Virus record (IMG/VR): IMGVR_UViG_3300045988_089674
Span: 1 to 5,615 of that record
Length of the DNA stretch: 5,615 nt
Reading direction: 5' to 3' (one strand)
From: a virus
The notes beneath the pieces were generated by a model. The model saw only the letters and a list, made by a program, of their open reading frames with translations. It searched no databases and was not told the DNA's origin. The position numbers and the translations under genes were made by a program. Of this stretch, positions 1,105-5,055 are shown piece after piece. Positions within the stretch are counted from its first letter, which is position 1, and the number at the start of each line of letters is the position of its first letter.

Positions 1105-1113
1105 TTTGTTATC

Positions 1114-1142
1114 GGCACAAGCTTCCTTGTCTATCTTGTGCC
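1114..1142 (-). promoter_or_regulatory. 8-bp stem hairpin in the rep 5' leader, 9 nt upstream of the VP4 ATG
   Basis: GGCACAAG (1114-1121) pairs with CTTGTGCC (1135-1142) across a 13-nt loop. On the mRNA strand the loop reads ATAGACAAGGAAG and holds the only SD-like element upstream of VP4. An alternative shorter pairing is ACAAG (1117-1121) with CTTGT (1126-1130). Confidence 0.45.
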
Positions 1143-1198
1143 GTTTGACACCTCGCTTCCTTTATATATTAACTTGTTGTAGTCGTAGTAGTAGTAGC

Positions 1199-1377
1199 GT
1201 GGAAACTGTTGAAAACTCGTTTTTTTTACGTTACTACGTTTATTTATTGCCTTTTTGCCTGTTGAAAACTTTGTTGAAAACTTGTTGAATTGTTGAAAGT
1301 TCGTCATTATGACGAATTTCTTTGTGCAACTTGTTGTTGAAAACCTGTTGAAAGTGTTGAAAACTCAAGTTTTCCAC
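1199..1377. repeat. Iteron-like array: eight same-orientation copies of TGTTGAA(AAC) bounded by an imperfect inverted repeat GTGGAAACT / AGTTTTCCAC
   Basis: Full 10-mer TGTTGAAAAC starts at 1207, 1260, 1272, 1335 and 1355. TGTTGAAAG starts at 1291 and 1346; TGTTGAAT starts at 1283. The flanks GTGGAAACT (1199-1207) and AGTTTTCCAC (1368-1377) are reverse complements apart from one extra A. The last copy plus the inverted copy forms the palindrome GAAAACT-CA-AGTTTTC (1359-1374). The region is non-coding, between the VP2 terminator and the VP4 start. Confidence 0.85.
1297..1319. other. Perfect palindrome/hairpin at the centre of the iteron array
   Basis: TTCGTCA (1300-1306), TTA, TGACGAA (1310-1316): 7-bp stem with a 3-nt loop. 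It extends to about 10 bp with AAG/TTT flanks (one G-T pair). Five of the eight iteron copies lie at lower coordinates and three at higher coordinates. Confidence 0.7.
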
Positions 1378-1405
1378 ACTCTCTATTTTCTGGATTATTG
1401 TTACT

Positions 1406-1433
1406 AAAAAAGGGGGATGTTTTGCCATCCCCC
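1406..1433 (-). terminator. Rho-independent terminator downstream of VP2
   Basis: The minus strand reads GGGGGATG-GCAAAA-CATCCCCC followed by TTTTTT: an 8-bp G/C-rich stem (1426-1433 / 1412-1419), a 6-nt loop and a T6 tract (1406-1411). It begins 8 nt after the VP2 stop. Confidence 0.8.
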
Positions 1434-1441
1434 TTCCTTTC

Positions 1442-3997: not shown

Positions 3998-4453
3998 TCA
4001 CTGTTTCGGTTCGTTTTCCTTCACCTCTTTCTTTTTTTCTTCCGGCTTCTGCTGTTCGGTCTGCTTCTGCTGTTCGGTCTGCTTCTGCTGTTCGGTCTGC
4101 TGCATCTGTTTCAGCCGTTCCATTGTTTCGGCTGCTGTCTCGGCCGTTGCGTGCATCGTCATGATATCCTTCGGCAGATTTTCAAGGTCAGTTCCTTCGG
4201 TGTATATCATGCTTTTTGCCTTTATGCTGGTATCTCCAGCTTCCAGTCTTGCGATCGCGCTTGCAAGGTCGTAGCCCTCGCCGGCTCGCTGGATTTTTTC
4301 GTATATGTTTTCATCCGGCTGTTCGATGTAGTCTGTAGTGCCGTTGGGTCGTTTGACTGCTTTCCACGTTGGCGCGGTCTTGCTGCCCGGATTGTTTGCC
4401 ACTCTCTCGGTCGGCATTCCGTAGTACCTTACCAGTGTATTAGGATTTAACAT
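3998..4453 (-). CDS. VP3: Internal scaffolding protein VP3-like, 151 aa
   Basis: Its position immediately upstream of VP1, its size (about 150 aa) and its acidic/Gln-rich composition match gokushovirus VP3. Strong SD: AAGGAG, 7 nt, then the ATG at 4453. It overlaps the VP5 3' end by 14 nt. The call rests on synteny, size and composition; the sequence motifs are weak by eye. Confidence 0.7.
   Translation of the reverse strand: MLNPNTLVRYYGMPTERVANNPGSKTAPTWKAVKRPNGTTDYIEQPDENIYEKIQRAGEGYDLASAIARLEAGDTSIKAKSMIYTEGTDLENLPKDIMTMHATAETAAETMERLKQMQQTEQQKQTEQQKQTEQQKPEEKKKEVKENEPKQ
4045..4098. repeat. 18-bp perfect tandem repeat x3 inside VP3 (GCTTCTGCTGTTCGGTCT)
   Basis: 4045-4062, 4063-4080 and 4081-4098 are identical. 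The repeat is in frame and encodes QTEQQK x3 near the VP3 C-terminus. Confidence 0.95.
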
Positions 4454-4706: not shown

Positions 4707-4823
4707 TTACTCTTTGTCTTTGTTTGCATCCTTTAGTGCGTGGTAAATTTCATCGAGCTTTTCAAGAATGCTCATCATCAGTTCGATTGCTTCCTTGACG
4801 TCCTTGACCTTAATTAGTGCCAT
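4707..4823 (-). CDS. Hypothetical 38-aa amphipathic helical protein (not in the ORF track): MALIKVKDVKEAIELMMSILEKLDEIYHALKDANKDKE
   Basis: Hand translation. The ATG at 4823 is preceded by AAAGGAGGTGAATTA (GGAGGTGA SD, about 5 nt spacing). The stop TAA (4709-4707) abuts the SD of VP5, and the ORF exactly fills the gap between neighbouring genes. No similarity recognised. Confidence 0.6.
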   Translation of the reverse strand: MALIKVKDVKEAIELMMSILEKLDEIYHALKDANKDKE

Positions 4824-4854
4824 TAATTCACCTCCTTTCTTTGGTTTGTGTCGT

Positions 4855-4971
4855 TTATAGCCGGATACCGCCCCGCGATACCTTCGGCCTTACGTTGATG
4901 TTTTTTACCCGCTTTGCAGTCTGGGTAAAGCGTTTCTGGTCGCCTTGACCCGCTCCGCTTCTGTGTGCCAT
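4855..4971 (-). CDS. Small highly basic protein, 38 aa, candidate J/VP8-like DNA-binding/packaging protein (not in the ORF track): MAHRSGAGQGDQKRFTQTAKRVKNINVRPKVSRGGIRL
   Basis: Hand translation. The ATG at 4971 is preceded by AAAGGAGTAAATA (AAGGAG SD, 6-nt spacing), with an in-frame TAA two codons upstream. The peptide has 6 Arg, 4 Lys and 1 Asp (net about +9). It is the same length as phiX174 J (38 aa). I recall the C-terminal RGGIRL as recurrent in gokushovirus small basic proteins, but this is unverified. Confidence 0.65.
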   Translation of the reverse strand: MAHRSGAGQGDQKRFTQTAKRVKNINVRPKVSRGGIRL

Positions 4972-5055
4972 TATTTACTCCTTTATGTGTTTTTGTTTTG
5001 TTTCATTCACAATTTGTTTTTTTGGTCTGGTCTCGTGCATTCCATGATTTCATTG

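Follow-up and report, generated by a model that had tools for sequence, protein, structure and literature searches.

The IMG/VR virus record IMGVR_UViG_3300045988_089674 (the window; 5,615 nucleotides, analysed over its whole length) comprises one circular gokushovirus genome of 5496 nt together with a 119-nt terminal redundancy, and every one of its genes lies on the minus strand (Table 1). The 337-nt gap between the stop codon of VP2 and the start codon of VP4, the rep gene, contains an array of short direct repeats that had been noticed from the sequence and proposed to be iterons of a replication origin or control module (the original prediction). We found that this array belongs to a sharply bounded element of ~218 nt (window 1161-1378), hereafter called E, which is present in a single copy per genome in more than 150 gut gokushoviruses and is a candidate for a module of the type found in bacterial chromosomal origins (oriC).

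The array is as originally described. Five exact copies of TGTTGAAAAC, all on the plus strand, start at 1207, 1260, 1272, 1335 and 1355, and three degenerate copies accompany them, namely TGTTGAAAGT with two mismatches at 1291 and 1346 and the shorter TGTTGAATT at 1283. These copies form three clusters with start-to-start spacings of 9 nt, of 12, 11 and 8 nt, and of 11 and 9 nt; five copies lie below and three above a perfect palindrome (1300-1316, z = -4.0), and the inverted pair reported to bound the array is also present (1196-1205 and 1371-1380, 90%). An inverted copy of TGTTGAAAAC with one mismatch, which reads GTTTTCCACA on the plus strand, occupies 1369-1378. Allowing up to two mismatches, TGTTGAAAAC occurs 16 times in the window as compared with a shuffle mean of 5.8, and none of 200 shuffles reached 16. 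Conservation at the nucleotide level, rather than of a protein, had also been proposed, and the open reading frames (ORFs) that cross the region indeed have no Pfam match and a frame stays open through the element in only 15 of 149 homologues; on these grounds we rejected a small protein gene within E. The element also extends just beyond the array as originally delimited, to 1158-1197, where it has AT-rich DNA, then the invariant AACTTGTTGTAG, then four perfect copies of TAG. Read along the plus strand of the window, E consists of AT-rich DNA, TAG repeats (trios), a short spacer that is G/C-rich in part of the elements, overlapping tandem copies of the repeat (boxes), more boxes and one inverted TTTTCCACA.

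Table 1. Genes and sequence features of the window (positions in the 5,615-nt stretch)
Feature	Position	Strand	Remarks
VP4/Rep	1104->115	-	PF23343
M15 peptidase	5451->5056	-	
VP5	4694->4440	-	
VP3	4453->3998	-	
VP1	3981->2353	-	Phage_F, 9e-149
VP2	2404->1442	-	
Terminator-like G+C hairpin, then T run	1410..1435	-	after VP2 stop; intergenic boundary, outside E
Hairpin, stem CGGCACAAG/CTTGTGCCG, loop CTTCCTTGTCTAT (1122-1134)	1113..1143	+	probable VP4 nick hairpin
AT-rich stretch TCCTTTATATATTAA	1158..1172		87% A+T (genome 54%); candidate DNA-unwinding element, trio-distal end
AACTTGTTGTAG	1171..1182	+	nearly invariant and phage-specific, at AT-rich/trio junction; not in host oriCs
DnaA-trio-like array TAG TCG TAG TAG TAG TAG	1180..1197	+	5'-TAG-3' equals consensus 3'-GAT-5'
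Trio-proximal tandem boxes CGTGGAAAC and TGTTGAAAA	1198..1215	+	counterpart of B. subtilis DnaA-boxes #7 and #6
Box cluster	1260..1299	+	TGTTGAAAA 1260, TGTTGAAAA 1272, TGTTGAATT 1283, TGTTGAAAG 1291
Palindrome TTCGTCA-TTA-TGACGAA	1300..1316		variable centre of E; lineage-specific
Box cluster	1335..1363	+	TGTTGAAAA 1335, TGTTGAAAG 1346, TGTTGAAAA 1355
Inverted box TTTTCCACA	1370..1378	+	far end of E; sole perfect TTWTNCACA in genome

The repeats had been expected to be conserved in related genomes, and alignment bore this out. When the gap was compared by BLAST with GenBank phages, 48 gokushovirus/Microviridae records matched over ~1161-1378 only, at 70-80% identity; these derive from human, pig, monkey, mink, raccoon and dog faeces, and in nearly all of them the annotation treats the matching DNA as non-coding. 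Scanning IMG/VR with a sequence pattern added more than 119 further genomes that carry E. In an alignment of 14 diverse genomes similarity dropped abruptly on both sides of the element, and the DNA of E remains 71-79% identical where the VP4 protein is 33-40% and the VP1 protein 40-48% identical, making E the best conserved stretch of these genomes. Across 149 unique copies the boxes, the trios and the left-hand block are highly conserved and the spacers and centre are not, a pattern indicating that selection acts on the boxes and trios. The most distant BLAST relatives (H50-H53) keep only the AT-rich, trio and first-box part. We rejected the possibility of a phage-host assembly chimera because more than 150 genomes, obtained independently in several studies and countries, carry E. 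A known RNA family was also rejected (E has no Rfam match near any gathering score), as was a mobile element of the miniature inverted-repeat or terminal-inverted-repeat kind: E takes two positions and two orientations, but it is always present once, always beside VP4, and ends in an inverted box in only 41% of elements.

By its sequence the supposed iteron is a variant of the DnaA box. Approximately 1200 boxes give the consensus TGT(T 85%/G 13%)GAAA(A/G), and the homologous sites include 102 instances of TGTGGAAAA (equal to TTTTCCACA) and 19 of the perfect TGTGGATAA, with the G variants clustered at the trio-proximal box and the inverted terminal box. Matches to TTWTNCACA with at most one mismatch are 16-fold denser in E than in the rest of the genome. 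The 0A boxes of Spo0A (TGTCGAA) are ruled out because C is essentially absent from position 4, where it occurs in ~1% of the 1200+ boxes, all of them chance matches within a hairpin. The original prediction of an origin-type module therefore stands insofar as E is conserved, non-coding and in cis, but its repeats are DnaA-box variants of the host type and not the Rep iterons of rolling-circle replication (RCR) plasmids or circular Rep-encoding single-stranded (CRESS) DNA viruses.

The arrangement of these parts is that of the basal unwinding system (BUS) of bacterial origins. The published search rule places a box with at most two mismatches to TTATCCACA at 0-16 bp from the trios (PMC8287927). 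In the window TGTTGAAAA (two mismatches) lies 9 nt from the last TAG, and 114 of the 149 elements have a box that conforms to the rule, mostly at 4 or 9 nt. The second tandem box, for which up to four mismatches are allowed, is CGTGGAAAC (three mismatches; 1198-1206), which abuts TGTTGAAAA in the same orientation; most relatives have TGTGGAAAAGTTGAAAA at this site, where the two boxes overlap by one base as they do in B. subtilis TGTGGATTTGTGGATAA. At least three trios with a central A are expected on the correct strand, and the window has four contiguous TAG at 1186-1197 plus one at 1180, with the polarity of oligonucleotide oHM558 (elements in general carry 4-6 perfect TAG repeats). Beyond the trios the expected AT-rich region is present as well (87% A+T at 1158-1172), and the 20 nt left of CTTGTTG have a mean A+T content of 75% across the 149 elements. 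Three or more consecutive TAG with a box (at most two mismatches) within 16 nt arose in only 1 of 2000 shuffles.

We compared order and polarity with published oligonucleotides. The BUS of B. subtilis reads 5'-TAGTAGAAGTAATAGTAG GGCC TGTGGATTTGTGGATAAGT and that of H. pylori TAGTAACAGTAGTAG GGG CGTGAATGG... (PMC8287927 supplement), and in C. difficile the trio CACCTACTACTATTACTACTATGA is followed by the unwinding element (PMC7561715). The E of one relative (L059), TAGTAGTAGTAGTAG GGGC TGTGGAAAAGTTGAAAAC, equals the B. subtilis BUS in parts, order, strand, 4-nt spacer and one-base box overlap; the E of the window reads TAGTCGTAGTAGTAGTAG CGTGGAAAC TGTTGAAAAC and is preceded by AT-rich DNA, as in L059. 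Between trios and box, GGGC, GGGG or AGAC is found in many relatives and hosts, just CG in the window, and AGTA or GCAA in others. A shorter version of the same layout, built from canonical boxes, is present in the turkey-gut microvirus phi-CA82 (L191; NC_015785, 3674-3889), where AT-rich DNA is followed by (TAG)6, TGTTGAAAC TGTGAAAAA, TGTTGATAA, TGTGGATAA cg TGTGGATAA and an inverted TTATCCACA. This version lies just downstream of rep, beneath an ORF annotated on the opposite strand as 'p4: putative non-structural protein', which is probably not a gene. Bacterial oriC BUSs (Richardson 2016/2019, Pelliciari 2021) thus share the parts, order and polarity of E, including additional boxes of like orientation, with a distal inverted box occasionally present, whereas E is set apart by its location on a 5.5-kb ssDNA phage genome that encodes a HUH Rep, away from dnaA/dnaN, by trios more regular than those of the hosts, by the invariant AACTTGTTG and by a neighbouring, probable rolling-circle hairpin. 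A chromosomal origin is expected to combine at least three DnaA boxes with a place beside dnaA/dnaN; E has 10 boxes in 181 nt but lies between VP2 and VP4 of a phage, and is an oriC-like module, not a chromosomal origin.

A search of plasmid databases returned a single 31-nt match, which pointed to an assembly of Subdoligranulum variabile. We located dnaA by tblastn with a B. subtilis DnaA query, which matched annotated dnaA genes at up to 94%. The dnaA-dnaN spacer of S. variabile contains AT-rich DNA, TAG TAA TAG, GGGC and TGTGGATTTGTTGAATG ... CGTGGAAAAC gat TGTTGAAAGTTGAAAAC ta TGTTGAAAAC, and eight further dnaA loci, with DnaA 70-88% identical and including those of Subdoligranulum sp., Ruthenibacterium sp. 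and Pygmaiobacter massiliensis, follow this plan. All nine dnaA-dnaN regions of this Subdoligranulum clade combine AT-rich DNA, at a position equivalent to that in E, with TAG trios, GGGC or AGAC, overlapping tandem boxes and mixed arrays of TGTTGAAAA and TGTGGAAAA. Host and phage versions can be read side by side: two host loci have TAATAGTAGTAGTAG GGGC AGTGGAAAAGTGGAAAG (L199) and TAGTAGTAGTAG AGAC TGTGGAAATGTTGAAAA (L204), and two phage elements have ...TAGTAGTAG GGGG AGTGGAAAAGTTGAAAAC (L063) and ...TAGTAGTAG AGAC AGTGGAAAAGTTGAAAAG (L060).

We built an nhmmer profile from the 149 E sequences and ran it on 70.8 kb of bacterial dnaA loci. At each Subdoligranulum-clade locus its best match fell exactly on the dnaA-dnaN spacer, with the same polarity, E-values of 1.7e-13, 6e-13, 1e-9, 2e-9 and 8e-8, and colinearity over ~195 of 220 positions at best. 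The profile had no match in the canonical-box oriCs of Vescimonas and Monoglobus. The origins of these Oscillospiraceae (L193, L196, L198-L204) resemble E in their boxes (TGTTGAAAA, TGTTGAAAG, TGTGGAAAA), their GGGC/AGAC spacer and their length of ~230 nt; unlike E they have 2-4 trios and no AACTTGTTG, and they are only similar to it (profile E-values 1e-8 to 1e-13), short of near-identity. The DnaA proteins of the clade read RDHSTVVY in the recognition helix of domain IV in place of the usual RDHTTV(L/I)H, in a comparison that covered P0011, P0046, P0062, P0084, P0109, P0119 and about 100 other DnaA homologues. This variant correlates with TGTTGAAAA boxes in the origins, and Vescimonas, with its canonical boxes, keeps RDHTTVLH. 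Some residues at these positions reportedly contact bases in the E. coli DnaA-DNA structure; we treat the variant as a lead only.

Independently, Roux et al. 2012 (PMC3394797) found the nearest relatives of the gut gokushovirus M15 peptidases among genes of Faecalibacterium. Together with the similarity of E to Oscillospiraceae oriC, this kinship points to Subdoligranulum/Faecalibacterium-like Oscillospiraceae as the likely hosts. E itself would then be a captured copy or close mimic of the unwinding half of a host origin, probably a captured copy. A scan of contigs with ACTTGTTGTAGNNGTAGTAGTAG was unusable as host evidence, as it returned low-complexity chance matches in coding repeats and one microvirus contig binned as 'Bacteroides sp. 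CAG:545'. Separately, S. variabile OY725878 (L192) has another group of TGTTGAAAAC-type boxes, some in each orientation, at 670-790, in an intergenic region upstream of a gene for an ArsR-like regulator. This group probably represents a DnaA-box cluster or a promoter regulated by DnaA in the putative host clade.

The original prediction took the palindrome at 1300-1316 for part of the origin. It is lineage-specific: a hairpin of at least 6 bp is present there in only 74 of the 149 elements and has several unrelated sequences. A different hairpin, at 1113-1143, lies outside the array, between VP4 and E; the start codon of VP4 is 8 nt away on one side and the AT-rich end of E 17 nt away on the other. 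In 147 of 156 unique flanks a hairpin whose loop contains CTTG/CAAG is found no more than 330 nt beyond the AT-rich side of E; these comprise 44 distinct stems, and their loops form one family (TACTTGAT, AACTTGAT, CTTCTTGAT, (A/C)CTTGTCTAT). A loop that stays constant while the stem changes is the hallmark of a rolling-circle double-strand origin, and the hairpin at 1113-1143, not the central palindrome, is on this pattern probably the site nicked by VP4. The proviso that the origin might map elsewhere, raised with the original prediction, thus came partly true.

The nick motif of phiX-type phages is CAACTTG^A. Strong intergenic hairpins that carry TACTTG in the loop, on the coding strand, occur in Chp2, phiMH2K and SpV4 (z -5.5, -3.2 and -5.2), and the loops flanking E match theirs. 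In the window the loop reads TCCTTG, on the non-coding strand, as against the (C/T)AACTTG-like motif of Microviridae. The loop motif of 1113-1143 and its homologues resembles the (T/A)ACTTG(A/T)T type found in phiX174 and in Chp2, phiMH2K and SpV4; the differences are that the classical phages have the hairpin or origin without a DnaA-box/trio module, and that the E-bearing clade has the motif on the non-coding strand. All E-bearing genomes checked have the CTTG of the hairpin loop on the strand opposite to the genes, as distinct from Chp2, phiMH2K and SpV4, where it is on the coding strand. The coding strand of E-bearing genomes is A-rich and T-poor at four-fold degenerate sites (A 0.27-0.51, T 0.07-0.15), and those of Chp2 and SpV4 are T-rich (this comparison of strand and base composition covered the whole genome of the window, L059-L064 and L188-L191); the coding strand of phiMH2K is also A-rich at such sites, so the base skew is only suggestive. 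If the hairpin is the nick site, the E-bearing clade may package the strand antisense to its genes.

We also considered a nick site within E itself. AACTTGTTGTAG and the AACTTGTTG at the trio/AT-rich junction resemble the ACTTG nick-loop motif (the phiMH2K loop is TACTTGTTGTAAGTAG). AACTTGTTGT occurs twice on the plus strand (1171-1182 and 1328-1337), and its first copy, AACTTGTTGTAG, is identical to the loop-plus-stem of the phiMH2K hairpin at 15 of 16 positions. The idea that VP4 nicks at AACTTGTTG, with DnaA taking the place of a hairpin, was downgraded because nearly all genomes have a separate CTTG-loop hairpin. In the majority arrangement the motif of that hairpin is on the opposite strand from the AACTTGTTG of E.

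The position of E varies in a restricted manner. The original prediction placed the array upstream of rep, which holds for the clade of the window, in which E lies between VP2 and VP4, antisense to the genes (62 of 162 unique elements; VP4 at least 80% identical to that of the window). It does not hold for the remainder, in which E lies downstream of VP4, either in the sense orientation (96 elements; VP4 32-97% identical to that of the window) or, like phi-CA82, antisense (4 elements). Adjacency to VP4 is constant, and in 158 of 162 elements the AT-rich/trio end faces VP4. One genome, L012 (IMGVR_UViG_3300045988_015275, 1580-1830), has a VP4 97% identical to that of the window but carries the E of the other clade, downstream of VP4 and in the sense orientation, and its VP2-VP4 gap is without E, a combination that marks it as a recombinant. 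This mismatch between E and VP4 indicates that E is a portable cassette exchanged by recombination. The M15 peptidase gene is also exchanged between clades, being 80-90% identical beside VP4 of 38% identity. Upstream of this gene in the window is a strong sigma-70-type promoter with an extended -10 TG (TTGACA-17-TATCAT; 5517->5489, minus strand; second span 22-115), and ~95 nt around it are 94% identical in the otherwise distant KX513868 and MG945514, where they directly follow E.

Taken together, the anatomy of E, its conservation, the match to the BUS in order and polarity, the colinear similarity to Oscillospiraceae oriC and the neighbouring hairpin make it likely that E is an oriC-type element bound by DnaA. 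The fuller statement, that E is a DnaA-dependent oriC-type module with a replicative role, is in our judgment probable, though somewhat less so. What the findings suggest is a clade of gut microviruses whose replication draws on DnaA, the initiator of the host; we infer the binding of DnaA, the unwinding, and the use made of both. In the mechanism that we propose, host DnaA would bind the approximately ten boxes (TGTTGAAAA, TGTGGAAAA and TTTTCCACA), occupying the stronger ones (trio-proximal and inverted distal) and filling the weaker TGTTGAAAA sites cooperatively. The two trio-proximal boxes would guide oligomerisation of DnaA onto the TAG trios, and DnaA would then melt the adjacent AT-rich stretch on the supercoiled double-stranded replicative form, at the end of E that faces and abuts the hairpin at 1113-1143. 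The opening could serve the rolling-circle origin beside it by exposing the loop for nicking by the HUH nuclease VP4, or it could allow loading of the host helicase and primase (DnaD/DnaB/DnaI-DnaC in Firmicutes) for synthesis of the replicative form and the lagging strand, or both. Such a mechanism would explain why E may point either way relative to the genes, and even to the nicked strand, and yet keeps its polarity to the hairpin and VP4.

Several points weigh against this interpretation. Its support comes from sequence comparison, and the assignment of the host is indirect. The survey of viral contigs was seeded with the trio motif, such that the conservation of trios in it is partly ascertainment; the set of elements obtained by BLAST is free of this bias. 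The box end, rather than the trio end, faces VP4 in four genomes and in phi-CA82, the spacer between trios and box is G/C-rich in only part of the elements, and Chp2, phiMH2K and SpV4 have nothing comparable to E. Moreover, the dominant box, TTTTCAACA, deviates from TTWTNCACA at a position that is reportedly critical for E. coli DnaA (Schaper and Messer 1995); that DnaA may use it is suggested by its presence in the oriCs of the host clade. Finally, the dnaA-dnaN half alone is an incomplete origin in B. subtilis and C. difficile (PMC6669920, PMC7561715), and E may therefore not fire alone.

A stronger version of the same idea is that E is a functional copy of a host origin, fired by DnaA. The double-stranded genome would then replicate in theta style and in step with the host cell cycle, persisting like a plasmid in a non-integrated, episomal carrier state, and the melting driven by DnaA would also open the hairpin for VP4 at the switch to rolling-circle replication. 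We regard this as possible but unlikely. As a corollary, the nicked and hence packaged strand may be antisense to all genes.

It is improbable that E is instead a decoy, which would not fire but would, in the manner of datA or cloned incA/B/C box clusters, titrate host DnaA on the multicopy replicative form, block host initiation and free replication resources. Cloned DnaA-box clusters do titrate DnaA in B. subtilis and in E. coli, and both the orientation independence of E and its approximately ten boxes, on a genome expected at high copy number, fit such a role. A decoy, however, could do without trios, without an AT-rich flank and without a set polarity to the hairpin and VP4, and yet the trios of E, with 4-6 perfect TAG, are more regular than those of the hosts, the trio/AT-rich part is the one best conserved in distant relatives, and the AT-rich end faces VP4 with the constancy described above.

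We consider more doubtful still a complementary-strand origin on ssDNA, in which a box hairpin (1355-1363/1370-1378) would recruit DnaA, helicase and primase in the manner of the 'A site' of the R6K ABC primosome. The inverted terminal box does form a hairpin containing TTTTCCACA with the box at 1355 in single-stranded DNA (z = -2.1), and a DnaA-box hairpin is said, from work by Masai and Arai, to be able to prime single-stranded DNA. The inverted box is nevertheless present in only 41% of elements, the remainder of E has no significant single-strand structure (z -0.05 to -0.65), and E is found either way round with respect to the genes and the CTTG hairpin, which a single-strand signal should not tolerate. 

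About as doubtful is a transcriptional operator, with DnaA or another regulator on the array controlling VP4 or a downstream promoter. DnaA autoregulates dnaA through box clusters, and S. variabile has its box cluster upstream of the ArsR-like gene; E lies between the terminator and VP4 in the clade of the window and ~100 nt upstream of the strong M15/late-gene promoter in the other clade. Repression needs neither trios nor an AT-rich flank, we found no promoter-like site in the E of the window, and the position of E relative to promoters and genes is unconserved; because its position relative to rep varies, a rep operator cannot be the general function. A local operator role, such as modulation of VP4 by DnaA in the clade of the window, may nonetheless exist. 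Least credible is what the original prediction favoured, that the repeats are iterons of VP4 flanking its nick hairpin as in RCR plasmids and CRESS-DNA viruses: direct repeats do adjoin rep near a hairpin, but much the same E accompanies VP4 just 33-40% identical (range 33-100%) and has been swapped between VP4 lineages, bacterial chromosomal origins contain identical boxes, and the central hairpin is unconserved, with no conserved motif in its 3-nt loop, the conserved CTTG-loop hairpin being outside the array.

As a DnaA-dependent oriC-type module, E can be set beside other systems that use DnaA boxes. Iteron plasmid origins (pSC101, F, P1, RK2, R6K) likewise combine a direct-repeat array, an AT-rich region and the involvement of DnaA boxes. 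Their iterons, however, are 17-22 bp long and bind the Rep of the plasmid itself, and their DnaA boxes are few and accessory, whereas in E the repeats themselves are the DnaA boxes and no site for an element-specific initiator is evident. The 'A site' of the ABC primosome and datA or other DnaA-box clusters place boxes outside oriC, in an ssDNA hairpin or at a titration locus, but they are without trios or an unwinding element, both of which E has. The original prediction that the element is unlike the phiX174 origin and undescribed in phages of that type held up; in a literature search of incomplete coverage, the Microviridae and other phages were nowhere credited with DnaA boxes, DnaA-trios or oriC-like modules. 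The kind of element is familiar from bacteria; what seems to be new is to find it on a rolling-circle ssDNA phage and next to a probable nick hairpin.

Elsewhere in the window we noted two in-frame tandem repeats, CTGCTTCTGCTGTTCGGT in three copies near the C-terminus of VP3 (QQKQTE repeats; 4040-4100) and CGCTGCCGGTTGTGGTCT in two copies in VP2 (TGSETT repeats; 2160-2200). Reading by eye also revealed two small, unlisted candidate ORFs on the minus strand between the M15 peptidase gene and VP5 (4716-4832 and 4850-4972). One of them would encode a basic 40-residue peptide, MAHRSGAGQGDQKRFTQTAKRVKNINVRPKVSRGGIRL, that resembles a DNA-binding packaging protein of the J/ORF8 type.

If our interpretation of E is correct, it would be the first case found of a virus, here a rolling-circle ssDNA phage, that carries a chromosomal-type DnaA-box/DnaA-trio origin module. 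It would allow the hosts of uncultured gut gokushoviruses to be predicted from sequence, as Oscillospiraceae with a TGTTGAAAA-box oriC, and would provide a compact natural BUS of ~220 nt for the study of DnaA from organisms that are hard to culture. It would also place the probable nick hairpin of gokushovirus VP4 and raise the question of which strand this clade packages. More broadly, it would hint at the way in which the replication of a minimal phage is tied to the initiator of its host, and would bear on the long-term persistence of Microviridae in the gut.

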